From assembly GCA_041666185.1 (NCBI GenBank), contig JBAYHL010000003.1:935-64934 (forward strand): a stretch of DNA of 64,000 nt. Direction: 5' to 3'. The notes under the pieces were generated by a model. That model worked only from the letters and a program-made list of their open reading frames with translations, ran no database searches and had not been told where the DNA came from. This DNA is from Patescibacteria group bacterium (GTDB lineage Bacteria; Patescibacteriota; UBA1384; UBA12157; JAENIV01). Positions 1,171 through 46,700 of the stretch are shown one piece after another. Each line of letters opens with the position of its first letter. Within the stretch, counting starts at the first letter, position 1. A program made the position numbers and the translations under genes.

Positions 1171-1204
1171 TCTTCGGCGTTTTTAAAATTTCTCTTGGAG
1201 GGGT

Positions 1205-4200
1205 ATGGATTTTAGTTTTTTTAAACTGCCAAGAAAAAAACAGCGGAAAACAAATGCGGAAAACGATTTTTTGTTACCTAAAGATAAAGAAAAAATCGAA
1301 AAGCTAACTAGGACTAAAACAAAATATTTTAAAAATATTAAAAAAATTAATTATCAAATTGATCTTGTTCGTGACTCAACTAAAACATTATTACCAAAAT
1401 TTGCTGGTCTTCACCATGGTTTACGTAAGAAATATTATTGGTATTATAATTGGCACACCAGACCTTATACTAAAAGCATCCATTGGTTAGTTTTGTTACT
1501 CTATATTATTTCTTTGCCTTTGGTTTATTTTTATTTGTCACCTTATACTGATAAAACCAAAGCCACTACTTACGATTTTCCCAGGTGGGAATGGGTAAAT
1601 CCAACGCCGACAGGTGATGATTTAGAAAACGTTATTGCTTGTCCGGACAATCAGACACTTTGGGCGTCTGGTGTAGGTGGGACAACTATTAGATCTACTG
1701 ATGCAGGGGTTAATTGGGAAACTGTTTACAGCACCGCTCAATCAAATTTAAGCATGGTCTGTCTTGACGCTAGTAACGCCTTTGCTGTTGGTGCTCAAGG
1801 TTTAATCATGCAATACAATGGTATTTCTTGGTCAAGTCGTACTAGTGGCACAATCTACGATCTCTCAAAAATTATTTCGCTTGGAAATAATAATCTTATA
1901 GTTATCGGTGCTCATGGAACTATTTTAAAATCAACCGATGGTGGCATAACTTGGAGCGCTAAGGACAGCAAAACAACAGATCCTTTGGGTGATATTTCTT
2001 ATTATAATTCAACCATGATTGTCGGTGGGGAGATGTCTGGTAATATATCTATTTCTCATGACGGGGGTGAAACGTGGACTCTAAATAGCAGTAGCTTCTT
2101 TTTGACAACAAAAGTTTTTGCTTTAAGTGATACGAATTTTTTGGTTTATAATGGTTCAATGTCAATTTCGACTGATGCAGGAGAAACTTGGGATACCAAA
2201 GCTGATTCCGGTGGTATTAACGTCGCCAATATTAGTCAAAATAATTTTGTGACGGCAAATGGTTTAAATGGGTTTGGTGTTTCTCATGATAATGGAAATA
2301 CTTGGAGTATTAAGGCGTGTGATGATCCTGCGAGCTGCCAGTATCTAAGTACGGTTTCTGGCACAGGAGATAATGTTATTGCTACTGGTAGTTATGGTGA
2401 GGTTTATGTTTCTCATAATAGTGGAGACACTTGGGTTAACGAAAGTATTGCTGTTCAGTCTACTTTTTATCCTCCTCTATTTCTTACCGCTAGCAGTGTT
2501 GTTATGGTAGGCGACAATGGGAAAATCTATACCTCTTCCGACGCGGGAGACAACTGGACGGAAATAAATACAGGTTCAATTACCAGTATTTATGGTATGA
2601 CTACTTTTGGGACCAATGATGTTGTTGCTGTGGGTTTGTCTGGTTATCTTGGTGTATCTCACGACAAAGGAGAAGCTTGGACAGTAGAAACTGATGGGAC
2701 AACCAATGGTTTTAGAGCTGTTGCCGCTTGTGGAACTAGTGTTGTCGCTGTGGGCATAAATAATAGCGATGGATGGTCTGCGGCGGTGGCTTACTCGTCA
2801 GATTCTGGGAATACATGGCATTCTGGGACATTTGATTCAGTAAGAAATCTTTTAGGTGTAACTTGTTTTGATGCTAATAATTTTATTGCTGTTGGAGATT
2901 CAGGAGCGATAGCGGTTTCTTCCAATGGTGGCAGCACTTGGACTGCTAAAACTAGTGGCACTGTTCAAACTCTTAAAAAAGTAATAGCTTTTAACACTAC
3001 TTATCTTGTGGCTATTGGCAATAACGGGATGATTGCTAATTCAGTTGATAGTGGTCAAACATGGACACCACAGACCAAGGGTGCTCAAAGTTTTAATGAC
3101 GTTAAAAATTTTGATAACGATTATGCAGTGGCGGTTGGAAATTCTGGCACAATTTATAATAGCTACGACGGAGGAATTAGCTGGTGGGCTACCGGTAAAA
3201 GTGCTGGGACAACATCGCATTTATTGAGTATTACTGTTTTTGATTCATCTCATGGGGTTGTAGTTGGTGGGCCGACAAGCTATTACACTGTCGAGAGGGG
3301 GGAATATTGGTTTAAAAATGCAGATCTAAGTGGTGTTAACCTAACTAGTGTTCATGCATTAGACTCAAGTAATGCTATAGCTGTTGGTAGAAGTGGGGTA
3401 ATTTACACAACGACTAATTATGGTGTGTCTTGGATACAGCAAGCCGTTAATGCTAAAAAAGATTTTAATTATGTTACTAGTTTCGATCCCCTTAATATTT
3501 TTGCTTACAGTTTTAGCATTAGCGGTAGTGGAATAATAAGATACCATAGTCCCGCCAATGCGACGGCAACCAAACTTTTAGTTAAGCTTCCGGGACAATC
3601 TTTTGTTGATGGAGTAGGGGTAAGTGGAACACCAGATGCCGTTCAGGCTGGTGACACAGTTACAGCAACTATTTACGCGGTTGATGATAATAATAATTTA
3701 GATAAAGGTAATGCTTCTTATGCTGGTTTTACCACCACTGATCCGGGGGATACTAATCCTGGAACAATTCAACTCACTCAAGGAGGCACCTGTGTTCAAA
3801 CTGATCGCCAGCCAGGAGATCCCGAATGTGGTATTGGTACGGCAAACTTCATCTTTCACACTGCTGGTGCTTGGACTGTTAGCGCTAATGATGTTTACAG
3901 CATTCTTTCTTCTGGAACTTCCTCGAGTATTACTGTTGATCCGGGTGATCCGGCAAAATTATATCTTTCAAGCCTTCCGGCAACTCTAGATATGGGCTCT
4001 GCTTCAAGTGCGGTTACGGTTGGTATCACAGATGTTTATGGTAACGACACGACTGTTAGTAGCAGTAAAACTATTCGTCTTTCAACTACCTCTTCTGACG
4101 GTCGATTTTCTGCTAGCTCTAATGGTCCTTGGACCAGAAGTCAGCTTGACGTTAATATTTTAAGTGGTTATGGAACGACAACTTTTTATTATTTGGATTT

Positions 4201-6028
4201 TCATACCGGTTCGTCGGTTGTAACAGCATCAGAGACACCTGACATTGGTTGGACTGATACTAGCGGGACGATTACTATTAATTCTGGTGCGCTTTCTTTG
4301 TCATCTTTAGGTGTATCAAGTAATTCCTTGACTGCTTGCGGGGGAACGCTGACAGTTACAGCAATTTTAAAAAATAGCGAGGGTCTTGCTCTGGCTAGCA
4401 GAACCGTTCAGCTTCAATCGTCTAGAAACACAAACGATACTACCTATGATACAATTTCTTCTTCTGTTATCACGGATTCTTCTGGTGTAGCTAGCTTTAC
4501 GGTTGATTCAAGCAATCCTGGTGATTTTACCCTTACAGCTTACGATCAAACAGATGATCTGTATATTCCTCAAAGCCAGGATATTAGTGTAGCGAGTAGT
4601 AGTTTGGGAAGGATTAGTCTTGTAAGCAGTTTAAGTACTGTTAGTGTTGGTTCGCCTTTTGAACTTACCACTACCATGTACAACACTTGTGACAGTGTAT
4701 TTTCTGATTATACGGGGGAAATTATTTTTTCTTCGTCAGATGACGGTGCTAAATTTAACGAAAAAAATTATACTCTTTCGACCGGAGAGGGTGGTAAATA
4801 TACCCAATCAGTTATTTTAGAAAAAGAAGGTGAGCAAACTATTAGTGTTTTAGCCGGCAGCATGACAGCAACAACTTATGTGACCGTTGTACCTGTAAAT
4901 GTTACAACAACTGTTTCAACGCCAACGGCCGTTCCTTCAGCAATTGTTACAACTCCATCGCCAATTTATACCGAACCAGCAAAATCCCTTATCGAGACTT
5001 TTCAGGAATCACCAACTTTGCAAAAAATTTCTAAAGTCTTAACGCCGGTAACGGCAACGGTGGCTACTTTGGGGCTTTTCCCCTTGTTAGTTCAAGCTTT
5101 CCCGCAAGGTTTTCAGGCATTAGCTTCATTATTTCCAGCAATTTTTACCGCGGCGGCTGTTAGGCGTCGTCGCAAACCATGGGGAATTGTTTACGATTCG
5201 TTAACTGGTAAACCAGTTGATTTGGCGATTATTAGAGCCTTTGATGTAAAAACCAAGCGACTTGTTGCCACTAAAGTCACTAATGAAAATGGTCGTTTCC
5301 ATTTTCTTCTTTCCAAAGGCAACTATTATGTAACTGTTACCAAAGCTGGTTATACTTTCCCGCCTAAAATTTCTAAATTTAAAGCCAGTCAACTTGCGAC
5401 TAGGTTTGGTCCACAAGGCGATATTTATTTTGGCCAATCATTTGTTATTGAAAGTGATGATACTAATATTAATTTAAGCATTGGCCTTGAACCTAAAATA
5501 TCAACTTTATCATTTAAGCTTAAATTAGCTATTTGGTTAAAAAATGGTACAGATTGGTTTTTAATTGCTCTTTCTTATTTCGCTGTTCCTTTAATGATTA
5601 TAGGAGCAATTTTAACCAGTTTGACAGTGGTTGTTATTCAATCGAAATTCAATTTATATTTATCTGGATTTTATGCGATTCTTTTGATCGCGTATCTTGT
5701 TAGCAGTCGAATTCGGGCTACGAGATTAGGTCTTATTTTCGATTCTAGAACTCGAGAACCGATTGCCGGAGCAACAGTTCTAATTATTGATAAAGAATAC
5801 GATGTTATTAGAGAAATTAAGACCACTGATCAGTCTGGTCATTTTGCAATTTTAGCCCAACGTGGCCAATATCGTTTAACTGCCTATGCCTCTGGTTATA
5901 AATTTCCAGCCAAGGAGTTCAAGCTTCAAAAAAGTGATAAACGCTTGGGAACTATTTATTTTGGCCAAACAGTTAATAATAAGAAAGCAGGCTTTGTTAA
6001 TGTTGGTATACCTCTTGATAGATTTTAA
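1205..6028 (+). CDS. Large membrane-anchored surface protein. N-terminal signal anchor, 13 or more BNR/Ycf48-like S-x-D-x-G-x-T-W repeats (beta-propeller), Ig-like region, Thr/Pro stalk, and a C-terminal cassette of CarboxypepD_reg-like domain, several TM helices and a second such domain.
   Basis: RBS ggagggg precedes the ATG. Repeats such as STDAGVNWE, STDGGITWS, SHDGGETWT and SSDSGNTWH are visible. The C-terminal part carries RRRRKPWGIVYDSLTGKPVDLAIIRAFD...GNYYVTVTKAGYTF, hydrophobic stretches, then a second similar domain. Confidence 0.8.
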   Translation: MDFSFFKLPRKKQRKTNAENDFLLPKDKEKIEKLTRTKTKYFKNIKKINYQIDLVRDSTKTLLPKFAGLHHGLRKKYYWYYNWHTRPYTKSIHWLVLLLYIISLPLVYFYLSPYTDKTKATTYDFPRWEWVNPTPTGDDLENVIACPDNQTLWASGVGGTTIRSTDAGVNWETVYSTAQSNLSMVCLDASNAFAVGAQGLIMQYNGISWSSRTSGTIYDLSKIISLGNNNLIVIGAHGTILKSTDGGITWSAKDSKTTDPLGDISYYNSTMIVGGEMSGNISISHDGGETWTLNSSSFFLTTKVFALSDTNFLVYNGSMSISTDAGETWDTKADSGGINVANISQNNFVTANGLNGFGVSHDNGNTWSIKACDDPASCQYLSTVSGTGDNVIATGSYGEVYVSHNSGDTWVNESIAVQSTFYPPLFLTASSVVMVGDNGKIYTSSDAGDNWTEINTGSITSIYGMTTFGTNDVVAVGLSGYLGVSHDKGEAWTVETDGTTNGFRAVAACGTSVVAVGINNSDGWSAAVAYSSDSGNTWHSGTFDSVRNLLGVTCFDANNFIAVGDSGAIAVSSNGGSTWTAKTSGTVQTLKKVIAFNTTYLVAIGNNGMIANSVDSGQTWTPQTKGAQSFNDVKNFDNDYAVAVGNSGTIYNSYDGGISWWATGKSAGTTSHLLSITVFDSSHGVVVGGPTSYYTVERGEYWFKNADLSGVNLTSVHALDSSNAIAVGRSGVIYTTTNYGVSWIQQAVNAKKDFNYVTSFDPLNIFAYSFSISGSGIIRYHSPANATATKLLVKLPGQSFVDGVGVSGTPDAVQAGDTVTATIYAVDDNNNLDKGNASYAGFTTTDPGDTNPGTIQLTQGGTCVQTDRQPGDPECGIGTANFIFHTAGAWTVSANDVYSILSSGTSSSITVDPGDPAKLYLSSLPATLDMGSASSAVTVGITDVYGNDTTVSSSKTIRLSTTSSDGRFSASSNGPWTRSQLDVNILSGYGTTTFYYLDFHTGSSVVTASETPDIGWTDTSGTITINSGALSLSSLGVSSNSLTACGGTLTVTAILKNSEGLALASRTVQLQSSRNTNDTTYDTISSSVITDSSGVASFTVDSSNPGDFTLTAYDQTDDLYIPQSQDISVASSSLGRISLVSSLSTVSVGSPFELTTTMYNTCDSVFSDYTGEIIFSSSDDGAKFNEKNYTLSTGEGGKYTQSVILEKEGEQTISVLAGSMTATTYVTVVPVNVTTTVSTPTAVPSAIVTTPSPIYTEPAKSLIETFQESPTLQKISKVLTPVTATVATLGLFPLLVQAFPQGFQALASLFPAIFTAAAVRRRRKPWGIVYDSLTGKPVDLAIIRAFDVKTKRLVATKVTNENGRFHFLLSKGNYYVTVTKAGYTFPPKISKFKASQLATRFGPQGDIYFGQSFVIESDDTNINLSIGLEPKISTLSFKLKLAIWLKNGTDWFLIALSYFAVPLMIIGAILTSLTVVVIQSKFNLYLSGFYAILLIAYLVSSRIRATRLGLIFDSRTREPIAGATVLIIDKEYDVIREIKTTDQSGHFAILAQRGQYRLTAYASGYKFPAKEFKLQKSDKRLGTIYFGQTVNNKKAGFVNVGIPLDRF

Positions 6029-25758: not shown

Positions 25759-25780
25759 ATAACAAAATTAAGTCCTAATT

Positions 25781-26446: not shown

Positions 26447-26550
26447 AAAATCCTCCTTTTAAGCTTTCTATATTTAGAATAAAACAAAATTTGAATAAAT
26501 ACAAATATGTGTTTACTTTGCTTGCTTAAAATGATAAAATAACTTTGTAT

Positions 26551-26625
26551 TCCCCGGTAGCTCAACGGTAGAGCAAATCGCTGTTAACGATTAGGTTGTC
26601 CGTTCGAATCGGACCCGGGGAGCCA
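26551..26625 (+). tRNA. tRNA-Asn (anticodon GTT), CCA encoded
   Basis: Acceptor TCCCCGG/CCGGGGA. D-arm GCTC-AACGGTA-GAGC. Anticodon loop CTGTTAA. T-arm GTCCG-TTCGAAT-CGGAC. Confidence 0.85.
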
Positions 26626-26714
26626 TCAAAAAATACGGTTTAAAGCCGTCTTTTTTGTGTTTAAGATCACAGAGTTTTTAAAAATATTAAACACCCAATT
26701 AAAAGAGCGCACCG

Positions 26715-26752
26715 TCCCTAATAACCAAGTTAAGGAAATTTTGTGGTATAAT
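26715..26752 (+). promoter_or_regulatory. Putative promoter with an extended -10 (TGgTATAAT) for the ytxG-to-giant-gene cluster
   Basis: tataat at 26747-26752 with TG at -14. The -35 is weak. Confidence 0.35.
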
Positions 26753-26775
26753 AATATTGAGTTGAAAGGATTTTT

Positions 26776-28774: not shown

Positions 28775-31700
28775 ATGAACCAAGATGAGGTAAATGAAGC
28801 GAAGTCTTTAGATGCCGAAATTTCTAAAATTACAAAAAGCACTCGAGCGACCGTGCCGGCAATGACGCCGTTGCACGATATTTTGCGTCAAAAATATCCT
28901 TGGTATTACAGGTGGCACTTAAATCCTTTGAGTAAAGTTGTCCATACCTTAGTTTTGGGTTTGTGGATAGTTTTAGTTACGGGAACAGTTGTCTATAGTA
29001 ATGTTTATCAGGCGCCAACGGCTAAAGCCGCCGCTGATTTTACTTGTACTTGGGACGGAACAACTGGTAACTGGTCGGATACGGCTAAGTGGGGTGGTTG
29101 TAACAGTGAATATCCAGGGCAAACTGGGACTACTACTTACGATGTTTCGATCCCTTCAGGGTCAGTGACTTTGGATGTTGCTAGCGTCGATATCACCGCT
29201 GCCGGAACAACTGCAGGGGATATTTCTGTGGTTGGAACTTTAAATACAAATGGCAATGCTCTTACCTTACATTCAATGTTGGTTGATACTGGAGGAACTC
29301 TTGTAGCTGGGATTTCTACTTTTACTGTAAAAAGTAACTGGAATCATTCCGCGGGAACATTTATTCACAATACTTCTACCATTGCAATGACAGGAGCTAC
29401 AGGTTCGATCACCACAGGTACAGATTTAAAATATGTATATAACTTAACAACAACTACTGCTGGCCAAACCATTACTTTTGCCAATAGAACTGGCATCAAA
29501 GGAGTGCTAACAGTAGGTAATGCCTCTAGTGCGGTTACATTAAATGGTAATCAACTTATAGATTTGTACGACAATACTACACCGCTTTCTTTGACTGGAT
29601 TGTATAGCATAACATCAGTACAAATGACCTTCAGGGCAACATCTCCTTTGTCTATACCGGCTGCAACCTATGGAGTAGTTTATATATTTCTTAATGCCAC
29701 CAATACCATATCTTTAAGTGGAACAACTACTTTTAGTGCACTTGATATTTACTCTGCTGTGGACAGCGCTACGTCTACACTTGACACTGCCGGCTACACT
29801 GTAAATACTGTCAATCTTTCGATAGGATCAGCTAGTGGAACTAGTCATTGTGGCAAATTTATTGCCAATAACTCAACAGTAAATGTTAGTGGAAATGTTC
29901 TTATTCGCGCTTGTGGTGCAGGGACTGCTGAACTTGATGCTGGAAGTTCTACTATTAATGTTGGTGGAGATTACACTAATAATAGTACTTTCACTGCCAG
30001 TACCTCGACCATTAATTTTAATAAAACTTCCGGTACACAAACTCTTACTTCAGGTGGTACGGGAACAGGAAAATTATTTAATAATCTTACTCATTCTGGT
30101 GCGGGAATTTTGAGGTTAGCCACCAACGATATTGATGTGAATGGCACTTTCACTAATTCTGCCGGAACTTTTGATGCTGATACAAACGATAAAAGTATGA
30201 ATTTTGCTGGAGCTTGGAACAATACTGGGTCGGCGACATTTTCAAGAGGATCTGGGATGTTATATTTTGATGGAGCAACAACATTGACTGACTCTTCTTC
30301 CAACGCCGGCGATTTGGGGGTGGTATATATAACCCCTACATGTGTCTTAACTCTTGGGTCGAATGCCAAAATGACCTCTGTTACTAGTGTGGTTTTCTTA
30401 GGAAATCTCAACATGGGAAGTGGAAATACTTTGACGCTTACTGGCACTGGAACGCCCATGTCGTGGTTTGATACAACAACCTTTCAAAAAGGTACCAATT
30501 CGACTGTAACTTATACTGGCACAACCACGGCGACAAATGTTGCAACAGTTGCCTACAACAATCTAACCTTAACTCCAACAGCCGCTACTACTTACAGCTT
30601 AGCCGGTAATTTAACTGGTGCTAGTGCGATGAGTGGGAATTTGACTATTAATGCAAACGCTACTTTAAATACAACAACCTCAAATTACGGAATATCTACA
30701 ATAAATTTAACTATTAATGGAACTCTTTCCGCCAATGCTTCAGCAATTACTTTATCGGGTTCATGGAATAGCACTACTGGCCATTATAATAGGACAAGCG
30801 GCTCAAGCGGCTCTCATGTTACAATGACTGGCACAACAGGGACAGCCTCTATTAATTTTAATCCGGCTGATTTTTGGACCAGCACAACATCTTTTAACTA
30901 TCTAGAAATTAATGCGCCGGGTAACACAGTTACTTTGTCGAGTGACATTACTTTTTGGTATGATTGTCAATTAAATCTTCAAAGTGGCACAATAAATGGT
31001 AGCCGGTATATTACTTTTGCTTATCCTAATAACTCGTCTCCATATATTAATACTGCTGCCTCTTTTGGTGCTTCTTTGCCGACAGTCAGCTATATTATTG
31101 GCACTTCAAATCCTGCCTCTCCTACAATTGTATCGAGCGAAATTTATCCCAATTTAACTATCACTACTGGTAGCGCATGTCCAGCCGGCACCGAATGTTA
31201 TGCTAAATTATCCAGCGGTATTTCTGCTAACAACCTTATAGTCTCTGGTCAGACTGGTAAAAAAGCAACTTTAAATGCCGACATTCACGATATATCTGTA
31301 GGTAATGCTTTAATTATGGGAACAGCAGGTGGTTATTATGGCGAATTGGATATAAATAGCTCTTTAACTGTTAACAATTATGTCAGCATAGTTAATTCTG
31401 GTGTCGCCTTTTCAAACAAGCTCGTTGCTGGCACAGGCACATCTATCTCTGTCGCTAATGATTTCATGAACTATGACACCTTTGAGGCCGGCACTTCGAC
31501 AATCACCTTTAACGGATCAACAACAAATAGAGGCATTACGACTAATGGGGATGCTTTTTATAATTTAACCATTGACGGAGCTGGTGGTGGTTGGATAGCC
31601 CAAAGTGCAGTTAATGTAACCCATGACTTTAATATTACTAATGGTACATTTGATCTTAAGAGCGGCAGTAATTATGCCTTAAATGTTGGTAACGATTTTA

Positions 31701-34700
31701 TTGGTAACAATGGCACTTGGACATTTGAAATGAGGGCTTCAACCATTACAGTTTCCGGTAACTGGAATACTTCAGCTAAAGCATGGGATAGCACAAACAA
31801 CAATGCTCTTAAAACAGGGACTTCAACTGTTGTAATGAATGGAACAGGTACTAAAACAATTACAACTGGTGTCACAAATGCCTGGGAATCAAGATTTTAT
31901 AATTTAACTGTTGGCCAAAGTGGTAACACCACCAGCCTTGCACAAGCAGTTGGGACTGATGGGGTTCTGACAGTCGGGACAGGGACTTTTTCAATTGCGA
32001 CTGATAAAACCATTTATCTCAAAAAACCAACTGGCGATGTTTTATCACTTGATCCGGCTGCGGTTTTAGTAGGAGTAGGTACTGGCCATCTCAGTCTTCA
32101 CAGTAATGGTACGAGCGGTACTTTAAATCTGCCAGCACACACTTATGATATGTCAATATGGCTAAGTGGTGGTGGTTTTACTGTGGCTCAAACTGGTGAC
32201 GTAATTATAAATGGTAATTTAATGGTAAATGGAGATCAGCAAGCTAGCAGAGTTGCTAATTACAACACAGGCAATCATTCTTTAACCATTTCTGGCAATC
32301 TTCAAGTTGGTTACAATACTACTACTTACGATGCTAATAAGACTTTCACTGCTGGTAGTTCGACTGTTACGGTTGGTGGCAATATGACTCAATATGGTAT
32401 TCTAACCGCCGGTAGTTCTACCTTTGATTTTAATTCTGCAAGTAGCCGAACCTTAGACTCTGGTGGCACAGGTGCCAATCAAACATTTAATAATCTTACT
32501 CACTCAGGTAATAATACTTTGCAGCTTGTGACCAACTCTATTAATATTAATGGTAATCTTACTAATTCTGCCGGCGAATTTGATGCTAATGGGCTAAATG
32601 TTGATGTTGCTGGTAATTGGGATGTTGCCGGTGGAGGTTTTTATGCCGGGGCGACTCCTGGAACGCAAACAGTCACTTTGGATGGCGCAGGAGGATCCAC
32701 TCAAGCAATTTCTGGTTCAACAACTTTTAATAATTTAACGGCGACAACTGCAACTGCTAGAACTCTACAATTTGCTGCGGCATCGACTACGGTTGTAGAA
32801 GGTGTTTTGACAATGGACGGTGCGGCAGGACAACTGCTTTCCTTACGTTCGTCTTCTTCTGGTTCTTGGTGGTATTTTGGTACTCTTAATCCAGCCGAAA
32901 CCTCTTACCTAGATATTCAGGATTCAGACGCTTCTTTGGGTGCCACCAATACGGCTAACACTTCTAATGATTCTGGTAATAATCAAAATTGGGTTTTTGG
33001 TGGGGGAGTTACTTATATTTCCGGAACGGTCTATACTAATGAAAACAAATCCACCAACGTTGGTGCGGGAATAACGGTGGCTATTTCAGTTAATGGTGGA
33101 GCAAAGAATACAATAACAACGACTGCCGGCGGGGTATTTAGCTTTAATTCTGTGGGAGTAGCCGCTAACAACACTCTTACTATTTTTACTGATGATGTTA
33201 CCTATAAATCAAATCTTGTTACCCAAGTTTTAAATACGGTAGATGACATTACGGGCTTGGAAATGTACACCGGAGATATTTCGCTTCGTCATGAAACTGC
33301 GGGACCCTTAACTAACACATTACTTGCAACAGCTGATAATCTAGCTGACCCTAATATGTTTTTCTCGGTTGATGGTTCTAATAACGCAACTTTTTCCAAA
33401 AAACTCTGGGTAGAAAGTGGTTACAACTATACACCAGGAGGTAACGTTACGGTTAACGATAGTACGGAAATTAGAAGTCTTGCTACTTTAAACCTGGGTT
33501 CTTCTGGTTATATTTTAACCTTGGGTGGTACATCAGCTACACCATTAGTGGTTTCTGGGACGCTTTCAACTGGCAGTAGTTCAACTGTTAAATACACAGC
33601 TGTTAATGCTGGGAGCAATGTCAGTGTTGTCGCTACTCCTTACAACAATCTTCAATTTTCACCTGCCTCGGCTGAAAGCTATGATTTAGCTGGTAACCTT
33701 ACTGTTGCTAATGCCATGACGGGCAGTTTAACAGTTGATGCTAATGCAACGCTTAATACCTACGTTGGAACTACAAGTTACAACATTTCTTGTGTAAATG
33801 GAACTGTTAATGCTAGTGGAACTCTTTATGCTGGCGCAAATGGCAGCACTGGCACGTCAACTTTTACGGCTTCTGGTAACTGGGACACCTCCAATGGTAC
33901 ATTTACTTACGGGACTTCAACAGTTGTTCTTACGGGTACAGCAAATTTAGGTGCTGGATCGTCTGCTTCTCATTCACTGTACAATTTGACAATGACTACT
34001 CCCGGTCAAATTGTAACTTTGTCTAGCATTGCTACAAAAGTTTACGGTACTTTTACAGTTGGTAGTACCTCGGGTGCTAAAGTTACTCTACAGAGAGGTG
34101 GTGGGAATGCATGGTTTTATTTGTACAACAATACTACCCCGTTAGTTTTCAACGGAACTTACAATGGGAGCCCTGGGTATAATATTGATGATTTAAATAC
34201 AGTATATAATCCTACATTAGACACATCTTTTGTTGGTGGTCATTTTGGGAATTTATATTTTACTTGTAACAACAAGACTATCACACTTGCTAATGCTGTT
34301 ACCGCAACTGGTAATCTTTTTATTTATAGCTCCAATAGCACTTATCGCTCAACCGTTGATACGGCAAGTAATGCAGTTACTGCTGGGACTTTAAATCTTG
34401 GCCAGGCTAGCTATACGTCAAATTACGCTACTTTATTAGCCAATGCTTCAACTATTACGGCGGCGAATGTTGTTATAAGAACCGGAGCTTTGGCAAACAA
34501 TATTTTAAACGCTGGTTCGGCAACTATTAATGTTTCTACCAACTGGACAAATGCTGACACATTTACAGCCGGAACTTCAACAGTTAATTTCAATGGTACG
34601 ACAACCCAAACTATTACCGGTGCTAATACTTGGTATAATTTGACGATCGCCAATACCGCTGGTACACCAAGTGATACTTACGATGTTGACCCAACTGCTG

Positions 34701-37700
34701 CTCAAACTGTGACTAATACTTTTAATATTAACGATGGCCAATGGAGCGGTTTTAATGGCGACACCTATAACAATATTAATATTAATTATACTAACGGCAC
34801 TGTTAATGGCATTTTTAAACCAGACGCAGGTGCTAATATTAATATTTCTAGCAACTGGACACAAGCGCTTAATTCCGTTTTTACTTATGGTACGAGTACA
34901 ATTACTTTTACTGGTAGCGGCAAAACTATTGGTGGAACAGCAAGCTACAGTATTTTTTATAATATAACAATAAATCCAGGTGCGTCAGTTACCAATAATC
35001 TTCCTTATGTGTATAACTTTGGTCCTAATTTTACGGCTAATGGTACCTTTACAGTTGGGGATGGTAAATATGTAGGTCTTTATTATGTTGGTGGGTCAAC
35101 GGTTTCTATCGGTGATGGTGGTTTAATTCAAGGAATTGATGTTGCCGATTCCATTTTTAACGTAGAAGATCTTGCGCCAACGGTTAATTTAACTGGTACA
35201 GGAAATTTTGGTTCTAATCTTTATTTAAGGTTTATGTTTGTCGATAGTAATGGCACACTGCCTTCTCTCAATTATAAAGCAGGAAAAGTAGAAGCTTATG
35301 GTTTATATTTTACAAGTGGTACTTATACTATCACACCAACAGCCGGGACATTAGATATTGATGGTGATTTTTCTATCATGGGCGAAGAGTACGATCAAAT
35401 GACTTCTACTATCGACTTTAATAATTCCAACAATACGACGATTAATATTGGTGGAAGTTTTTCTAGGACAGATGCCTTTGGCGTTCCTGAAATTAAATAT
35501 ACCAAGGGTACGACTGATACAGTCACTTTTGATGCCGCTGCAGGTACAAAAACTTTTGATCCAGGCACAACATCCGTTTTCAATAATCTTACTCACTCTG
35601 GTGCGGGAACTTTACAACTTGCTAATACTGCCTTAAATATTGATGGCAACTTTTCTAACTCAGAATCTGCGGGAGAATTTGATGCCAATGGTTTAAATAT
35701 TAATGCCGCTGGCAATTGGGACGTTGCCGGTGGAGGTTTTTATGCCGGGGCGACTCCTGGAACGCAAACAGTCACTTTAGATGGTGCAGGAGGATCCACT
35801 CAAGCAATTTCTGGTTCAACAACTTTTAATAATTTAACAGCAACAGCTGCTACTGCCCGGACTTTACAGTTTGAAGGTGGTCAATTAAATATGGTTTCTG
35901 GTACTTTAACCATGAATGGCGCGGCAGGACAACTGCTTTCTTTGCGCTCATCTTCTCCTGGTACTACTTGGTATTTTGCCACTTCCGGCACGCCAACAAC
36001 TTCTTATCTAGATGTTAAGGACTCCGATGCTACTTTGGGAGCAACAATTAGCGCTAGCAATTCATTAAATTCTGGTAATAATTACAACTGGAGTTTTGGT
36101 GGCGGTGTAAATTATATGTCTGGTACGGTCTATACCAATGAAAACAAATCCACCAACGTTGGTGTTGGTGTTACGGTGGCAGTTTCAGTTAACGGTACGG
36201 CTAAACAGACAACGACAACCACGGCTGGCGGAGTATTTAGTTTTAACTCTGTTGGGGTTGCCGCTAACGAAACTTTAACCTTTTTCACTGACGATGTAAC
36301 TTACAAATCAAACCTTGTTACACAAGTTTTAAATACGGTAGATGACATCACGGGATTGGAAATGTACACCGGAGATATTTCACTTCGTCACGAAACCGCC
36401 GGGCCAATAACCAACACCTTGCTTGCAACAGCTGATAATCTGGCTGACCCTAATATGTTTTTCTCGGTTGATGGTTCTAATAACGCAACTTTCTCAAAGA
36501 AACTTTGGCTAGAATCAGGTTACACTTACACGCCAGGAGGAAATGCTACGGTTAATGACAATACTGAAGTTAGATCAACTGCTACCTTAAATCTAGGTTC
36601 GTCTGGTTACATCTTAACTTTAGGTGGTACATCAGCCACACCATTAGTGGTTTCTGGGACGCTTTCAACTGGCAGTAGTTCAACTGTTAAATACACAGCT
36701 GTCAATGCCGGCGGCAATGTTAATGTGACAACTGTACCTTACAACAACCTCCAATTCACACCGGCGTCAGCTGAAAGCTACGATTTAACCGGTAATCTTA
36801 CTGTTGCTAATGCTATGACAGGGAGTCTTACAATTGATACTAACGCAACCTTTAGCACAACAGCTTCTAACTACAATGTCGCTGGGATTAATGCGACGAT
36901 CGTGGGTACTTTAACGCCAAATGCTTCAACTATTACTCTTTCCGGTAACTGGGATTCGTCGACAGGGACTGTTAATATGACTGGGAATACTTCGACCGTT
37001 GAAATTACCGGTAATAGCTCAATTAATGGTAAAAGCTGGGTTAATACTTTTTATAATCTAAAAACAGCTTATACCGACAAAAATGTTAGCTGGACAAATA
37101 ATAGTGCCATAATTAATCAGCTTACGTTGATGGGGACCAATCCAAGTACCTCTCATATTACTGGAGTTGCTAGTCAATATGGTCCTAATTTGAATGTTAG
37201 CGGGTCTAATTTAGTTGTTTCTAACGGTGCCAATATGGTGAACTTGACAATTCTTTATACTGGTTCGGGAGCAACGACTATTACTCCCGGTACTTTTTAC
37301 TCTATTTTGGCGGTTGCTCCATCTTCATCAACTCAGACTTTAGGTGGCGATGTTACCTGTGATTATGTTAGAGTTTTTGGTTCTTCTGGGCAAACAGCCA
37401 CATTGGATTTGAATGGTTACACCTTAAATTCTGTTTCAAGCACTGGTTTTAACCAAATTGGTTGGGATGGTGACAACACGCGTTATGGCAAAATTATCAA
37501 TAGCTCTCAGACAACTGACGCGACAATTAATGCTAATGGCGGTGGTAGTGGTGGTATAAAAATTAGTACCTCCAATACAGGTGGTAAAAATATTCTTGAT
37601 GCCAGCGGCGTTGGTCCTGCTAATCATACGATTAATGTTAATATGGCTGGTAACTGGACGAATAACGATCAATTTATATACAGTAATTCAACAGTTAAAT

Positions 37701-40700
37701 TTACCGGTACGGGAGCGATCGACAATACTGCTAGTTGGGGTGATAACAATAAGCGTATGCACAGCCTAATCATTGAAGCCGGTGCTGGTACGGTGACTCT
37801 AACAAACGGAGCCTATTTAATGGGCACAGGAACTTTAACTTTAAATAGCGGCATTCTTACTGGTAATAAAAATATCTATGTAAATGCATTTAATGGGTCG
37901 TATGTTAATAACGGTATTAGTAATTTTGGCGCCTCAAAACCAGTTATTACCATGATGGTTAGTTCGACTAACCCAGCTTCGCCAGATATTATCTCTGGGG
38001 CTTCAGCAACCTATCCTTATCCTTATCTAGAAACCCGTGGCGGAATTAGCAGCGCGACTGTTTATGGCAAAATGGGTGGCAATATCACCAGCTCTAGTTT
38101 TACTATTGCCCCTTGGCAAACTAACGATACCTTAGAAGTTGACACCGACAATTATTCTATTACTGTTAACGGTTGGATGTTTGTTGGCGCTAACTGGGCA
38201 ACTTCCCATGCCTCAATTTTGAATGCTCGTCACTCAACAATCACTGTTACTGGTGAAGTTGGTATATATTCTCACGATACTAATCCTACTCCAAGCGAGC
38301 TTCGTTTTGATGACACTGGTGGTAGCCTTTCGGTGATGGGCAATTTTAACTTTGATACTGCAGGTGGCTCAGTAAGAGGCATTTTCACACCAGGTCACTC
38401 AACAGTTACCTTTAATGGAGCCAATACCCAAGCCATTATCGGTGCCAACACTTGGTATAACTTAACGATTGCCAATACTGCTGGTTCACCAAGCGACACT
38501 TACGACGTTGATCCAACGGCGGCTCAAACAGTTACTAACACTTTCAATATTAACGACGGTCAATATAGCGCTTTTAATGGTGACAGTTACAATGACATTA
38601 ATATTAATTATACCAGTAGTACTGTTAAGGGTATATTTAAACCAGATGCGGCAGCAAGTGTTACTGTTTCTGGCAACTGGTCTCTAGCAACTAGCGCTAC
38701 CTTTACTTATGGTACAAGTACAATCATCTTTACTGGTAGTGGTAAAACTATTGGGGGGACGTCGCTTAGTTGGTCTCTTTATAGTCTCGTAATTAATCCA
38801 GGCGCTTCTATTACAAGCAATACAGCTTATATATATGTTTATGGCACTACTTTTACAGTTAATGGTACATTTAGTGTAAATAATATAAGTGTTTATGCTC
38901 CTACTGTTACGGTCAACAGTACCCTGACTGTTGGTGATGCTAAGATGTTGTATTGGTCGAACTCTAACCAAACGCTTAACATTGGTGACGGTGGCTTGAT
39001 TCAAGGAGTCGATGTTGCAGATTCTGTGTTTAGAATAATTGGTGACGCAACACCAACTATCAATTTAACCGGAACGGGAAATTTTGGTTCCAGTCTTTAT
39101 TTACAGTTTATGATTTATTATGGTGATTTAGCGCTGCCTTCTTTAAATTATCAAGCTGGTAAGGTTGAAGTGTTTGGCTCTTTTGCATTTGAAAGTATTG
39201 TTCATAATATTGTACCAACAGCTGGAAATTTAGATATTGATTGGGACCTTAGTATCAAATGTGAATTGATATTTGGAACGGGCACTCCTACTATGAATCT
39301 TTATAACTCCAATAACACACCCATTAATATTGGTGGAAGTTTTACAAGGGCAGAGATTGGTGCTGTTGGTGCCATTGCTAAATACACTAAAGGCACAACT
39401 GACACGGTTACTTTTGATGCTGCTTCTGGGACAAAAACTTTTGATCCAGGGTCATTATCTACCTTCAATAATGTTACTCACTCTGGTGCAGGAACACTTC
39501 AGCTTGCTAATACTGCTCTAAATGCTGATGGTAACCTTACTAACTCTGCCGGAACTTTTGATGCTAACGGTTTAAATATTAATGTCGCTGGTAACTTTGA
39601 TATTTCTGGTGGGTCATTTTCTGCCGGAACTGTTCCTGGAACCCAAACAGTCACTTTAGATGGTGCGGGAGGATCTACTCAGGCAATCTCTGGCTCAACG
39701 ACCTTTAATAATTTGACGGCGTCAGCAACGGCGGCTAGAACTTTACAATTTGCGGCTTCGTCAACAACCGCTGTTTCTGGTACTCTAACAATGAATGGCG
39801 CGACTAGTCAACTGATAAGTTTACGCTCATCATCTTCTGGCACTGCTTGGAATCTTAACGCCACTAATGCGCCAACTCTTACCTATGTTGATGCCCAAGA
39901 TTCTAACGCTTCTGGTGGAGCGCTAATTACTGCTAATAACTCTAACGACTCTGGTAATAACACAAATTGGACTTTTGGCGGGGGAGTAACCTATATTTCC
40001 GGGACAGTCTATACAAATGAAAATAAATCCACCAATGTTGGTGCCGGTATCACTGTGGCGATCTCTGTTGATGGTGAGGCTAAACAAACAACCACGACGA
40101 CAACTGGTGGAGTCTTTGCCTTTAATTCTGTTGGTGTTGCCGCTAACAATACTTTAACTCTCTTTACAGATGATGTTACTTATAAAGGTAACTTAATTAC
40201 TCAAGTTTTAAATACCACCAACGACATTACTGGTTTAGAAATGTATACCGAAGATATTGTTATTCGTCATGAAACTGTAGGACCAATGACCAATACCTTA
40301 CTTGCAACAGCGGCTACCCTTGCCGATCCCAATATGTTTTTCTCGGTTAGTGGTGGCAACGCGACATTTACGAAAAAACTTTGGTTGGAAAGTGGCTTTA
40401 ATTACACATCGGGAGGGCAGGCATCAGTCACCGACTTAGAGACAAGAGGTACTTCGACTTTTGCTCCGCAAGCTAATAGTGTTTTTGCGTCTGGTAACTG
40501 GACAATCTCGGCGACTGGAATTTTGACAACTTCAGGAACAATTGATTTTACTAAATTATCTGGGACACAAACATTAAACTCTGGTGGTACTGATTCAAAT
40601 CATCAGCTTTATGGTCTTACTCACTCTGGTGCTGGTACTTTACAATTGACTTCCAATGCCATTGTTGAGAATAATACCTTTACTAACTCTGATGGCACTT

Positions 40701-43700
40701 TTGATACTAATAACTTAAATACATTTTTCCTTGGTGATTGGAATAATACTGGTGATGCGATTTATTCTAGAGGTAGTGGTATTTTAGATTTTGTTGGTAC
40801 TTCGATTATTACTAATACTTCAACTAATGCAGAAAGTTTGGCAGGTGTTATTATTATTGGGACTGCTACTCTTAACTCTAATCTGACAATTCAGTCAGTT
40901 ACTGGTTCAGGTACTTTAAATCTTGGTAGTGGTTCGTACACCCTTACGGTAACAAGCACTGGATCAGGTTTAGGCGTGACCAATTTCAACAAAGGTACTG
41001 GTTCAACAGTTGTTTTTACTGGTACTGGTGCCAGTGTTAACATTGCTACTTTTGCTTATAATAATTTAACTTTGTCACCGGCAACATCGGCAACTTACAG
41101 TTTAACTGGTAATCTTACGGGTGCCAATGCTATGAGCGGCAATCTTACTATTAATACTAACGCGACTTTAGACCTGCGGCCTTCAACAACCGATTATAGT
41201 CTGACGGCAGTTAATGTGACTGTTGGCGGAGTTTTGGATGCTGGCAGTTCGTCGTCTACTGTTACGGTTGGTGGTAACTGGGATGTTTCTACTGGTACTT
41301 TCACAAGGGGAACCAGCATAGTTGCTTTCACTGGGAGTTCGGCTTCTATAAATTGTGGTGCTGCTTATTGGAACAATCAGTTTTGGACAATCAACTTTCC
41401 TTCAGCCGGAACAACAACTACTACTTTAACGAATTCTATTTCGGTCAGAAATACTTCTTTAGGAAGTTCTACAAATACAATTACTAGTGCAACCAATTTA
41501 TCTATTGAGGTTTGGAACAGTGGTACACCGGTAACTAATAATAACGCTGTTTTAAGTAATGTTCAGCTAACATATAACGCAAGTGGGGCTACTAATGTGG
41601 CCGCCGGAAATTCTTTTGGTAATGTTAAGTTTTTTTCAGATACCAATAGTGTTACTTACACTTTGCAAGGTGACATTAACGCCGCTGTGGTTACTGTTTA
41701 TTCCAGTAACGACAACAGAACTGCGACACTTGATTTAGATGGCCACAACTTAACTCTTTCTAGTAGTCTTTCCGTTGGTTTAACTGGGAACACTATTAGA
41801 AATGGTGTTATCCAAAATACTAATGTAACAACTAAATCGACAATCACGTCAACCGACCTAACAATCTATAACGGTGCCGGTAATAACAAGATTTTAGCTA
41901 ATGGCACTCAAACTATTGACTTCAATGTTGCTGGCAACTGGACCAATTCTGACACATTTACTGCTGGTGCTTCGACAGTGACTTTCAATGGCACGACAAC
42001 CCAAACTATCACTGGCGCTAATACTTGGTACAACTTAACCATTGCTAACACCTACGTGACCCCAAGTGACACTTATGACGTTGACCCAACGGCGGCTCAA
42101 ACTGTTACTAACACTTTCAATGTTAACGACGGGCAATACAGCGCTTTCAATGGTGACAGCTACAATGATATTAATATTAATTATACCAGCAGCTCCGCTA
42201 AGGGTATTTTAAAACCAGACGCGGCGGCGAGCATCACTGTTTCTGGTAACTGGACATATATGTCTGGTGCTACTATTACTACTGGCACAAGTACATTCAC
42301 CTTTACTGGTAGTGGTAAGACTATTGGAGGAACTGGATCTTCATCTTTCTACAATTTTGTAATTAATCCAGGGGCATCTATTACAGGTAATGCAACCTCT
42401 TTATATGTGTACGGTCCAACATTTACAGTTAATGGCACATTTAACATTAATTCTGTATATTTTTATGGTGCTACCCTCACAGTTAATAGCACATTAACTG
42501 TTGGAGATGGAAAGATTTTTTATTGGTCATATCCAGACCTAACACTTTCTATTGGTGATGGTGGATTAATTCAAGGAGTAGATGTTAATGATTCTATATT
42601 TGAAATAAGCAATGATTCAACGCCTACTATTAATTTGGCTGGAACAGGAAATTTTGGTTCTAATCTTTATTTGCAGTTTTATCTTTATTCTGGCAGTCTT
42701 TCTATTCCTTCCTTGCATTACCAAGCCGGTAAGGTTGAGGTATATGGTTCTTTCGCGTTCGAAAGTTCTACTCACACTGTTGTACCGACAGCTGGGACAT
42801 TAGACATTGACGGAAATTTCAGTCTTAAAAGTGAGGTTTTCATTTCAGGTACTCCTGTTATTGACTTCAATAACTCCAATAATACGACTATTAATATTGG
42901 TGGAAATTTTTCCAGAACAGAGATAGGGGGTGCTGTTGCTAAATACACTAAAGGTACAACCGATACAGTTACTTTTGACGCTGCTTCTGACACAAAAACT
43001 TTTGATCCTGGTTCTACCTCAGTTTTCAACAATGTTACTCACTCTGGTGAAAGTACTTTGCAGCTTGTTAATACTAATCTAAACGTCGATGGCAACTTCA
43101 CTAATTCGGCTGGTACTTTTGATGCTAATGGTCGTGATATAACTGTTGCGGGATCGTGGAGCAACACGGCTACTTTTGACAAAGAAACGAGGACAGTCAC
43201 TTTCGATGGTGGTGCAACCGGAAAAACAATTAATGGTGGTGCCTCCGGATTTTATAATTTAACAATCAATGGAGCCGGTGGAGGATGGACTTTAGATACT
43301 AGTAACTTAACCACTGTTACAAACATTAGCATTAATTCCGGAACATTAAACACTGGCACTCTTTCTCTGGGAACAGCTTCCAGCACGGTTTTGAATGTTG
43401 ATGGAGGAAACTTAAATGGTGGAAGTAACACAATTAATGCTAAAACTTTTAATGTGTTAAGTGGTGCTTTTGTGTCTGGTAGCGGGCAAGTTAATTTAGG
43501 GACAAACTCGTCTTGGGGTTATTATGGACACACTAGCGGAACCGCTGATTGGACTACTAACAACACAACACTTTATATCTATTCAAATAGTGAGAGGACT
43601 TTACCTCCAGATACGTATCATCATCTTACCTTAGCAGCTGTTATAATTCCTTTTTCTGGTGATCCAATCTATAGTTTAACCGGGGCAACTGTGTTGGAAG

Positions 43701-46700
43701 GGAATCTAGAGATTTTAGGAGTTACTGGTCTTTCTTCGGCGCAACTTTCTGTTACCAGTAATGATTTAACTGTTTACGGTAATTTAACTATCGGTGATGT
43801 GGCCACTCTTTCGGCGACGACAGCTAATATTTTAGTTGGTGGTGACTGGACTAACTCCAATACGTTTACTCCTGGTACTTCGATAGTTGATTTTACTAAA
43901 TCGGTTGGTGCTCAGACATTGAACTCGGGTGGTACTGGGACAGGCAAAGCCTTTAACAACCTTACTCACTCAGGGGCTGGAACTCTTCAACTTTCAACTA
44001 ATGCAATTAATATTGATGGTAATTTTACAAACTCTAATGGGGTTTTCAATGCCAATGGTTTAAACGTTAATGTTGCTAAAGATTGGAATATTTCTGTCGG
44101 TTCTTTTTCTGCAGGAGCAACCCCAGGTGATCAAACAGTTACTTTTGATTCAACTAGCCCAACAGTAATTTCTGGTTCGACAGATTTCAATAACTTAACC
44201 ATGGATGCTTCGGTTGATGGAGCTAAAACTATTACCTTTGAAGCTGGTTTTGTCCAGACAATCGCTGATGGAAAGACTTGGGATCTAAATGGTGGCAGCG
44301 GTAAGGTTTTAACTCTTCGTAGTTCAATACCTGATACTGCTTGGGAATTTGTAATTCCAGCTGATATGACTTCAGGGGAGTATATTGATGTTAAAGACAG
44401 CCAAAATAATACCAATGAGTTTAGAATTACACCTGGAGCAAATTGTATTGACTCTGGTAATAACGTTCCTGGTTGGTTGTTGTTCCCAGATGCGCCGACA
44501 ATTGGCACTCCACAAGCAATTTCGACAACGGCTGTTCGTTGGACATTTACAGACACTTCTTACAACGAAATTGGTTTTAAAGTTTACGATGCAGGCGATA
44601 ATTTGAAGGCAACTTGCCCAGGCGTGGATTTGACTTATTGCGATGAGGTTGGACTTTCAACAAACACTCAGTACTCTGGTCGCTACGTTGTTTCTTACAA
44701 CATGGCTGGTCAATCATCGCATTCAGGTACAGCGGCTTCAACTTACACTTTAGCCGACACGCCTTTAGCGCCAACCCTTCAGCAGTCATCTAGTACCTCT
44801 CTTAAGGTGATCGTCAATGTTAATGGTAACCCTTCTCCAACTCAATTTGCTATTTCCAACGAAAGTTTGGGTAAATATGTCCAGGCCGATGGCAGTAATG
44901 GCGATACCGCCGTTTGGCAAGATTATGCTACTTGGGGTGGAGAAAATGGTATTACCAACACTGGTTTAGTTCATTCAACAAATTATACTTATAGAGTTAA
45001 AGCTAGAAATGGCGATAATATTGAAACGGCAGTTTCTCCGTCGAACTCAGAGACGACACTGTCCCAAGGTCATGGTGACAAGCCTCCTTCACCGACACTA
45101 TCATCAACAGAGTCGCCAACAACATCTCCGGGCGCAACTCCTTCAGGTGGGGTAACAACGTCTCCAGGCGCAAGCCCTGTGCCAACTTCTTCGTCGGCCG
45201 ATGTTCAAGCGCCAACCGTGCCATCGAATTTACGAGCAACTAAGCTAGGAGCGATTACCTTAACTTTAGCTTGGGATAGTTCTTCAGATGACATTAGTGT
45301 TCAAGGGTACGAAATTTATAATCCTACTACCAATATTTTAGTTGGCACAACAGCAAATAACTTCTTTGATTTTTCAGGGCTTTTACCTAACACAACTTAC
45401 AAGTTTTACGTTCGGGCTTTTGATGGCGCTAACCATTACAGTCCAAACTCGGAAGTTTTAACGATTACTACCTTGGAAAGTCGTACAGAAGAGGAAAAGG
45501 CGATTGAAAAGCAGGGTGGGGTAGTTGCCTTCTTGATTATGGGTAATATGCCGCAATCAAGAAATGCCGGACAAAGTTTCCCAGCAGTTAAACTAACAGC
45601 CGCTGATGTTGGTGGTAATGTAGTTAAAGGCTACGATAAATCAGTTTATTTTACCTCTAGCGATACTCAAGCCAAGCTAACTTATGATGAATCTCATCCT
45701 TATACATTCCAAAGCTCCGATAATGGTGTTCATACATTTGCCCCTCGTGATTTTATTCTCAACACTCCTGGTCGTCAGCAAATTGCCGTAAGTGATAATT
45801 CAACAAAATCAACGGCTGAAATTCAAGTGAATTCGACAACTTCGGCGGTTTTACAGCGATCAGCTATTTATGTTGCAGGATTCTTAAATAGTCCTGAACA
45901 GGTTTCTAAGGCAAATCTAGTAGTGGCAGTTTTGATTGCCGGCGCTTTGCTTATGCCAACACTGGTTAATGCTTTTTCTAACGTAAATAATTTATGGCCA
46001 CAGCTTATTTATGGGTTTACTTATCTTTCGCAAATGCTTGGCCTTTCTAAGAGGCGACGTAAAACTTGGGGAGTGATTTTTAACTCTCAAACTGGTCAAC
46101 CAATACCATTTTCAATAGTAAAACTTCTTGATAAGAATAATCATTTAGTAGAGCTTGCTATTTCTGACAAGCAAGGAAGATACACTTTTGCTATGAAAGA
46201 GGGTACTTTTACCTTGAAAGTAAGTCGGGCTGATTTTGTTTTTCCTTCAAGTGAAAAGGCATCTAGTTTTTACGAGAAAGTTTACACTGGTTCAGAAATT
46301 AAAATTGCCGATGTAAATCAAAGCATTTTCTTTAACATACCTCTTGATCCACACGCCAAATCAACGTTTGGCTTAGGTTTGTGGATCTTTGTCATCAGAT
46401 TAAATCATTTTACTCAACAGATTCGTTTACCGCTTTTTGCTTTAGGAATGATTTTTGCGATTATGATGTTGGTGATTAATTTTAATCCGGTTTATATTAT
46501 CTTCTTAGCATTTTGTGCCCTGATGATTGTTCTTGATGTTACGCGCTTTGGGAGGGTTGTCGCCGCAGGTATGGTCTCTGACACCTACTCACGTCCTTTA
46601 CCTAAAGCGATTGTTCGTATTTACCATAAAGAAGATAACCGATTGATTAGCACGGATATTTCTAATAAATCTGGTCGGTTTAAGTTTAAAGTAAATCCTG

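Follow-up and report, generated by a model that had tools for sequence, protein, structure and literature searches.

A leader and a membrane cassette shared by two large predicted surface proteins with unrelated passengers in a Saccharibacteria-like genome

The window analysed in this work, that is, the whole stretch of 64,000 bp taken from contig JBAYHL010000003.1 of a Patescibacteria group bacterium, carries two genes for very large predicted surface proteins, here named A and B, whose N-terminal and C-terminal regions are related to each other. Gene A (1205..6028, + strand) encodes a protein of 1607 amino acids (aa), identical to the database protein P0004, in which an N-terminal leader is followed by a passenger of Ycf48/BNR propellers and Big_1 Ig-like sequence, as identified with Pfam, and by a C-terminal cassette. 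Gene B (28775..46831, + strand) encodes a giant protein of 6018 aa, identical to P0016, with the same arrangement of leader, passenger and cassette, its passenger being composed of fn3 sequence (Pfam) and three to four large repeats. These repeats of ~1,000–1,250 aa occupy residues ~1090–5240, are 50–85% mutually identical and are compatible with recent internal duplication. An earlier note on this DNA had proposed that both proteins share an N-terminal anchor motif and a C-terminal cassette, quoting one string for each protein. Both strings exist, KKYYWYYNWHTRPYTKSIHWLVLLLYII in the 1607-aa open reading frame (ORF) at 1205-6028 (+) and QKYPWYYRWHLNPLSKVVHTLVLGLWIV in the 6018-aa ORF at 28775-46831 (+), and the single interval 1205-6028 under which the note placed the two proteins spans protein A alone.

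The N-terminal modules (residues 46–125 of A and 10–89 of B) aligned without gaps at 36% identity (BLASTP, E=9e-17) and the two cassettes at 27% identity over 330 aa (E=2e-27), and no similarity between the passengers was found by BLASTP at E≤0.01. The junction at the basic cluster is RRRRKPWGIV in A and KRRRKTWGVI in B, and each protein contains two CarboxypepD_reg-type domains, all above the Pfam gathering cut-offs. The overall order of the C-terminal parts that the note had described was common to both proteins, although the Thr/Pro stalk included in that description is clear in A and weak in B. Beyond the generic sandwich, leader and cassette were unmatched in Pfam (2025) and NCBIfam (June 2026), and no curated family covers them. 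Across all six frames, no further ORF of the window contained leader or cassette. That A and B acquired their shared ends by recent gene conversion was considered and rejected, because protein identity between the modules is only 36 and 27%. Judged from these alignments, the termini of A and B are true homologous modules around unrelated passengers.

The cassette of A starts with a membrane entry (aa 1263–1324; 4991..5176, + strand) in which ..ESP..KISK is followed by H1, a weakly hydrophobic predicted transmembrane (TM) helix, a Pro turn, the amphipathic H2 and RRRRK. Next come sandwich 1, a CarboxypepD_reg domain (aa 1325–1430; 5177..5494, + strand; PF13620, 59.5 bits vs 32.3), a region with an amphipathic segment, a TM hairpin (TMb 1451–1478, TMc 1482–1501) and RIRATR (aa 1431–1507; 5495..5725, + strand), and sandwich 2, a CarbopepD_reg_2 domain (aa 1508–1607; 5726..6025, + strand; PF13715, 46.3 bits vs 32.2). 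In B (aa 5700–6018; 45872..46828, + strand) the pre-helix, H1, H2 and KRRRK precede sandwich 1 (5764–5860), an amphipathic segment with a TM hairpin (5861–5922), TRFGR and sandwich 2 (5928–6018), and the two sandwiches scored 58.3 bits (cut-off 32.3) and 32.3 bits (cut-off 32.2), respectively. The region between the sandwiches, to which two to four TM helices had previously been attributed, is better described as one amphipathic stretch plus a two-helix hairpin. The AlphaFold2 (AF2) model of residues 1121–1607 of A, calculated from a 5-sequence alignment and used for secondary structure only, also gave two sandwiches with a helical hairpin between them.

Alignment of 73 cassettes defined these parts further. 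The pre-helix consensus is a loose ..(N/S)P..AK.IAK.., H1 is a stretch of ~25 aa, weakly hydrophobic, rich in Ala, Thr, Val and Gly and with a central Pro, and after a Pro-containing turn the amphipathic H2 (~17 aa, ..Y..SL.LEALGI) leads to the R/K cluster. In A, sandwich 1 begins at an invariant WG, two residues past RRRRK; both the W and the G were present in 73/73 cassettes and are followed by V-[YF]-[DN]-S into sandwich 1. Past this domain there are an amphipathic stretch, two hydrophobic helices separated by a 3-residue turn, a second basic cluster and sandwich 2. Sandwich 1 of A cross-matches sandwich 2 of B, so that the cassette, on this sequence evidence, consists of two copies of one unit, a hydrophobic segment followed by a basic cluster and a sandwich, that arose by internal duplication.

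A profile obtained from five cassettes was used for an exhaustive search of 1.84 billion cluster representatives, which gave 8,663 matches at E≤1e-3, 4,283 at E≤1e-10 and 1,145 at E≤1e-30. Among the best 150 matches, 81 are proteins of 300–6018 aa that terminate in a complete, contiguous cassette, and 23 have a full-length cassette short of the C-terminus, ~18 of them with a tail past sandwich 2; another 21 are unrelated tandem arrays of the beta-sandwich. The tail is a TM-free extension of 70–200 aa, first Pro-rich and then E/K-rich, coiled-coil-like and with a terminal [SN]I[FW]G. This subclass comprises P0092, P0097, P0098, P0107, P0113, P0118, P0121, P0125, P0135, P0139, P0146 and P0151, and most tailed proteins begin with ordinary signal peptides. 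A word-indexed search with the cassette of A, a method that reaches these families poorly, found three close relatives only, and profile searches of the PDB with the leader and with the cassette gave no matches.

The leader was present at the N-terminus of 35 of the cassette-profile matches, with E values from 1e-9 to 1e-44. In A it comprises a conserved, presumably cytoplasmic motif at aa 46–93 (1340..1483, + strand; ..IDLVRDSTKT..P....LHHGLRKKYYWYYNWHTRPYTKSIH), in which the alignment showed H, YY, W and H to be invariant in 33 sequences, and then an h-region at aa 94–112 and the c-region PYTDKTKA at aa 113–120 (1484..1564, + strand for both), with a predicted signal peptidase I (SPI) cut after Ala120. 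In B the same motif, the h-region and the c-region YQAPTAKA occupy aa 10–85 (28802..29029, + strand), the predicted cut being after Ala85. The mature proteins would consequently start with TTYDFPRWEW after TKA in A and with AADF after AKA in B. The consensus was LDxxIxxIQKSTRTxxPxxxPLHxxLRxKxxWYYxWHxxPxxKxxH(W), where H24, Y34, Y35, W37 and H47 are invariant and I, Q, S, T, T and R nearly so. A hydrophobic helix of 20–25 aa follows the conserved n-region of ~48 aa (45–50), the leader totalling ~75 residues. In the cleavage-site column, Ala was found at −1 in 33/35 leaders, T, V, I or A at −3, and Pro at −6 in 19/35.

An independent set of leaders was recovered from JGI metagenomes in a scan with a 9-sequence alignment, where one back-translated peptide pattern, R[MQA][KRH][YFM]xWYYxW, gave 125 confirmed loci. 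A small-x-Ala site was present in 78/79 distinct leaders of this set, most commonly 41–43 residues past the Trp of WYY. Judged by alignment, the leader has the basic flank (LRxK), the h-region and the small residues at −3 and −1 of a Sec substrate of SPI. Because the n-region, the helix and the site with Pro at −6, a small residue at −3 and Ala at −1 match the anatomy of signal peptides, the leader is most likely an extended, cleavable Sec signal peptide of the SPI type. The strongly conserved site means that the supposed N-terminal anchor is probably removed and does not anchor the protein.

Word-indexed homologue searches with the N-terminal module, first with two and then with 33 sequences, gave no match, although this method cannot reach such families, and a profile scan of genome-collection contigs with the two-sequence module recovered one locus, L001. 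Mpo1-like Pfam matches to the leader (E=0.011–0.039, in 2/33 members) were rejected as chance. Four ORFs of 83–109 aa consist of the leader only (L012, 771-1088; L013, 4318-4644; L060, 9959-10207; L076, 1366-1656): each contains the motif and the helix, terminates short of the predicted cut and is followed immediately downstream by a large leader gene. Such ORFs may represent either small membrane proteins with a function or remnants of recombination.

Leader and cassette are linked but separable. Among the best 150 cassette matches, 34 of the 64 complete proteins ending in the cassette have the leader, and an ordinary signal-peptide-like N-terminus was found in 14/28 leaderless proteins with a C-terminal cassette and in 14/17 of those with an internal cassette; examples of such N-termini are those of P0029, P0130 and P0100. 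The metagenome set contained 89 leader ORFs in 81 loci, 21 of them complete. Seven of the complete ORFs end in the cassette and two more are interrupted by the contig end inside it (9/16 informative ORFs). Seven large complete leader ORFs lack the cassette: two have a single TM helix plus KKH, three a conserved amphipathic helix and two no visible anchor. The two modules thus recur together in many proteins, and each is also used without the other. Leader and cassette are common, independently used building blocks of surface proteins.

The three leader proteins with the amphipathic helix (L059, L060 and L067; 2018, 2523 and 3296 aa) carry it as a short C-terminal segment after an fn3-like domain, and their helices are similar to each other (...SILEQIIQALTKVFRMFEGWINK; ...SLFEIIINALESAFAGLSKIGK). 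This helix may be a different membrane-association module. Leader genes were also observed in tandem, three at L013 (1515-8252) and two at L044 (4868-12288), and as a convergent pair at L067; the two large paralogues of L013 have near-identical C-terminal regions.

The topology of the cassette was studied from the charge of its loops. In the 73 cassettes the net charge was +4.4 in the 8 residues after H2, +2.1 before TMb and +2.2 after TMc, and it was ~0 in both 3-residue turns and +0.3 before H1. Because of this pattern, and following the positive-inside rule, both sandwiches would lie in the cytoplasm and the turn between TMb and TMc outside. It is thus fairly probable that the two sandwiches are cytoplasmic, that H1 is the sole stop-transfer pass and that H2 is an interfacial amphipathic helix. 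In P0003 one continuous hydrophobic stretch of 25 aa precedes KRRRK, which implies a single membrane pass, and the polar stripe and conserved Glu of H2 also support a cytoplasmic location. In addition, the [SN]I[FW]G terminus of the TM-free, E/K-rich tail looks more like a short linear motif of the cytoplasm.

The explanation that we favour, with a probability of about 0.55, is that A and B are large surface proteins built from three independently exchangeable parts, of which the leader is cleaved and the cassette is retained as a cytoplasmic-membrane anchor. Both would be surface proteins of a Saccharibacteria-like single-membrane cell, probably adhesins or enzymes. The n-region of the leader would be read before or during translocation, and, in line with proposals made for YSIRK/GXXS and ESPR, it may help to target very long chains for export or to control the pace or the site of their export; the leader would then be cut off by SPI. 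The variable passenger would be exported via Sec until H1 halted the transfer, leaving the RRRRK cluster and sandwich 1 in the cytoplasm. The TM hairpin would re-insert in the membrane, so that the second basic cluster and sandwich 2 would also be cytoplasmic. The cassette, of ~330 residues, would speculatively be a polytopic anchor acting as a non-covalent, sortase-free 'rivet' for giant adhesins, and its cytoplasmic domains would be free to contact internal partners.

Several data weigh against this explanation. For the cassette, H1 and H2 (~25 + 17 aa, mean hydropathy 1.58 and 1.23) could make two passes, in which case the sandwiches would be extracellular. The usual location of CarboxypepD_reg-type domains is extracytoplasmic, and 21 of the best 150 matches are giant proteins with close relatives of the cassette sandwiches in long tandem arrays. 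The AF2 model was poor (predicted local distance difference test score of 52.8, predicted template modelling score of 0.27) and too weak to decide the topology. For the leader, the invariant His, Tyr and Trp and a conserved n-region of 48 aa go far beyond the needs of a signal peptide and, together with the leader-only ORFs, suggest that it has a membrane function of its own.

The first group of data would fit a cassette in which H1 and H2 both span the membrane, the sandwiches lying outside, where they would bind wall or glycan or act as spacers, and the TM segments serving as a staple. The length of H1 and H2, the usual location of CarboxypepD_reg/transthyretin-like domains and the extracellular type of the tandem arrays formed by closely related sandwiches are all compatible with it. 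However, such a cassette would have a net charge of ~+8.7 outside and ~0 inside, the reverse of the positive-inside rule, and it agrees poorly with the single hydrophobic stretch of P0003, with the polar stripe and Glu of H2 and with the charged, TM-free tail and its terminal motif, which suggest the cytoplasm. We consider this arrangement rather unlikely.

The second group of data could be accounted for if the leader were an uncleaved signal-anchor, both ends of the protein being held in the membrane as a loop and the N-terminal motif contacting the sandwiches or some other partner. The h-region is long (20–25 aa) and opens with conserved His/Trp, the cytoplasmic part is strongly conserved, the leader-only ORFs resemble small membrane proteins, and both conserved ends would be cytoplasmic under the topology preferred here. 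However, a near-invariant Ala at −1, a small residue at −3 and Pro at −6, all at a fixed distance after the helix, would have no evident purpose in an uncleaved anchor, and leader and cassette occur independently of each other, so that a double-anchored loop appears still more doubtful.

The earlier note had interpreted the two modules as a dedicated sorting system, analogous to LPXTG/sortase or PEP-CTERM/exosortase, in which the leader and/or the cassette would be tags for a specific enzyme or secretion factor that processes, attaches or localises the proteins. The ~80 leader loci represent several synteny groups of housekeeping genes that are unrelated to each other (dnaG-rpoD-...-giant gene, prfB-pth and others), and no conserved protease or transpeptidase neighbour was found across them. 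Recurrent neighbours included GIY-YIG proteins, a small four-TM protein, 23S-IVS-like four-helix-bundle proteins and response regulators. A sortase-like gene (~200–240 aa, with an LMTCWP motif) adjoins the leader gene in L003, L005, L017 and L040, where it is divergent from the giant gene and the loci form one synteny group, and it is near in L046 and L055; it is absent from the window and from most other leader loci. No sortase, rhomboid or signal peptidase gene was found in the window, whose only candidates of this type are general M23, FtsH and L,D-transpeptidase genes. No LPXTG-, PEP- or PGF-like motif was detected upstream of H1 in the 73 aligned cassettes, and the NCBIfam sorting-signal models were unmatched (E≤1) in the whole of A and in residues 1–200 and the last 500 residues of B, the nearest NCBIfam match being a chance-level hit of the MXAN_2561 family (E=0.17). 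Sortase was rejected as the general cognate enzyme because it is adjacent in few loci, all of one synteny group, and because there is no LPXTG motif.

Even so, the conserved cytoplasmic motif of the leader exceeds any Sec requirement, the hydrophobic helix with RRRRK is similar to the second and third elements of tripartite sorting signals, and leader and cassette co-occur far above chance. Since these points and the few adjacent sortase genes are opposed by the lack of a signature motif, of a terminal position, of a sorting-signal match in Pfam or NCBIfam and of a conserved enzyme neighbour, and by the use of each module without the other, enzyme-mediated sorting is improbable.

Other gene arrangements were observed in these neighbourhoods. 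In L028, L039 and L059, an ABC ATPase gene (~240–260 aa) and a gene of ~400–420 aa lie between or directly after leader genes. In the leaderless lineages represented by L084 (7069-8004), L085 (5818-6822) and L086 (2773-3762), a homologous gene of 311–334 aa is located directly upstream of the cassette gene, overlapping it in L084 and L085. In its product a beta-rich body lies between a signal peptide and a C-terminal TM helix, and this protein showed a weak, sub-threshold similarity to the WxL-interacting protein (DUF916; 24.5 bits vs a cut-off of 27.3). L085 and L086 also share an upstream AI-2E permease gene and genes of ~177 and ~245 aa. The gene pair of L084–L086 suggests a Csc/WxL-like or pilus-like surface complex; no homologues occur in the window.

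Comparison of the cassette with the C-terminal sorting signals LPXTG/sortase, PEP-CTERM/exosortase, PGF-CTERM/archaeosortase and GlyGly-CTERM/rhombosortase revealed that they share the order of linker, helix and basic cluster past the passenger, as well as their presence on many unrelated surface proteins of one lineage. The cassette differs from all of them in having no signature motif, no NCBIfam match and no cognate enzyme, either in the ~80 loci or in the 64-kb window, and in not being terminal. The basic cluster is followed by another ~290 residues, which include two folded domains and a TM hairpin, and the cassette is accordingly an integral anchor domain and not a terminal tag, being too large and not terminal enough for the LPXTG/PEP-CTERM type. 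Ebh of Staphylococcus aureus, a giant surface protein of a Gram-positive bacterium, has a non-covalent C-terminal TM anchor with a basic cytoplasmic flank. The saccharibacterial Pam pilus proteins (PamC, PamD and PamR) likewise have a C-terminal TM segment and a basic flank (bioRxiv 10.64898/2026.03.03.709456), and according to the same preprint the surface structures of another Saccharibacterium, which has no outer membrane, are tethered by C-terminal TM helices. The anchors of Ebh and Pam are single helices with short or unstructured tails, whereas the cassette would be polytopic and has two conserved beta-sandwiches; even so, it is better compared with C-terminal TM anchors of this kind (Gram-positive giants and Pam) than with sorting signals. 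Finally, the transthyretin-like families PF13620 and PF13715 match every sandwich of A and B, but they cover the isolated sandwich only; the invariant RRRRKxWG junction and the succession H1-H2, basic cluster, sandwich, TM hairpin, basic cluster and sandwich lie beyond their scope.

In the case of the leader, the nearest parallels are YSIRK/GXXS (PF04650) and KxYKxGKxW (TIGR03715) of Gram-positive bacteria. These are also conserved n-region motifs in cleavable Sec signal peptides, limited to a subset of large surface proteins and combined with different C-terminal anchors, and it has been proposed (J Bacteriol papers) that they act prior to or in the course of translocation. ESPR (PF13018), found in autotransporters and two-partner secretion (TPS) proteins, is similar in being an N-terminal extension of the signal peptide preferentially present on very large secreted or surface proteins. 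The hidden Markov models (HMMs) PF04650, TIGR03715 and PF13018 were unmatched in A, B and the 33 leaders, scanned singly at E≤1. The leader has no sequence similarity to YSIRK/GXXS or KxYKxGKxW, so that the likeness is one of functional analogy, and it differs from YSIRK in its conserved region (~48 aa vs ~10), its invariant His, Tyr and Trp, its lineage, the Candidate Phyla Radiation (CPR), and its partner anchor, which is not LPXTG. ESPR belongs to diderm Proteobacteria with type V secretion, spans ~25 aa and is unrelated to the leader in sequence. No description of leader or cassette was found in the literature searched.

The window is a gene-dense segment of a bacterial chromosome of low G+C content (~30–42% per 2-kb window), with five tRNAs and genes including those for PNPase, UDG, RNase J, FtsK, RecA, PPDK, DnaG, RpoD, FtsH, MurJ and LepA. 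Gene A is flanked by pnp and udg and was also found with the same neighbours on a 71-kb ENA metagenome contig. Gene B is flanked by a response-regulator/Hpt pair and by a convergent L,D-transpeptidase gene. The orthologous giant gene is carried by L001, a Candidatus Saccharibacteria contig whose RpoD is 88% identical to that of the window, the RpoD of other leader loci being 76–87% identical. On this basis the organism is a Saccharibacteria-like member of the CPR/Patescibacteria. A giant leader gene downstream of dnaG-rpoD was observed in the window (the stretch 22833-28666 precedes gene B) and in L001, L010, L018, L024, L038, L049 and L050. The small genes lying in between vary among the Saccharibacteria-like contigs; those of the window encode an M23 peptidase, a tRNA, YtxH, a YGGT-like protein, a response regulator and Hpt. 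As this position is conserved across contigs, gene B looks like a vertically inherited core gene.

In summary, the earlier note was correct in proposing that A and B have a leader and an anchor in common, and its analogy with enzyme-mediated sorting is not supported by the evidence. We infer that the leader is of the extended signal peptide kind and the cassette of the C-terminal membrane-anchor kind. A further, speculative and improbable proposal concerns the possibly cytoplasmic pair of sandwiches and the leader-only small ORFs: leader and cassette would belong, as its two visible components, to a CPR-specific pathway that puts giant adhesins on the surface, in which a dedicated cytoplasmic or membrane factor reads the His/Tyr/Trp motif of the leader, leader-only proteins may join the machinery, and the paired cytoplasmic sandwiches, some with [SN]I[FW]G, couple the adhesin to intracellular partners.

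CPR bacteria, Saccharibacteria included, live on the surface of host cells, and the leading candidates for host recognition are their large surface proteins. Very little information exists on the export of such proteins and on their retention by a single-membrane cell, and leader and cassette would indicate an export and anchoring biology specific to this lineage. As both modules can be searched with HMMs, the likely surface proteome of CPR bacteria could be listed from metagenomes, with passengers from a few hundred to >6000 residues. Genetically tractable strains of Saccharibacteria exist and enable tests of leader and anchor (Cell 2023, PMC10633639). If the sandwiches are cytoplasmic, this would be an unusual site for a transthyretin-like fold and a possible route of signalling from the surface to the cytoplasm; and if the CPR-specific pathway were true, the epibiont would gain a direct transmembrane link from host contact to its own cytoplasm.

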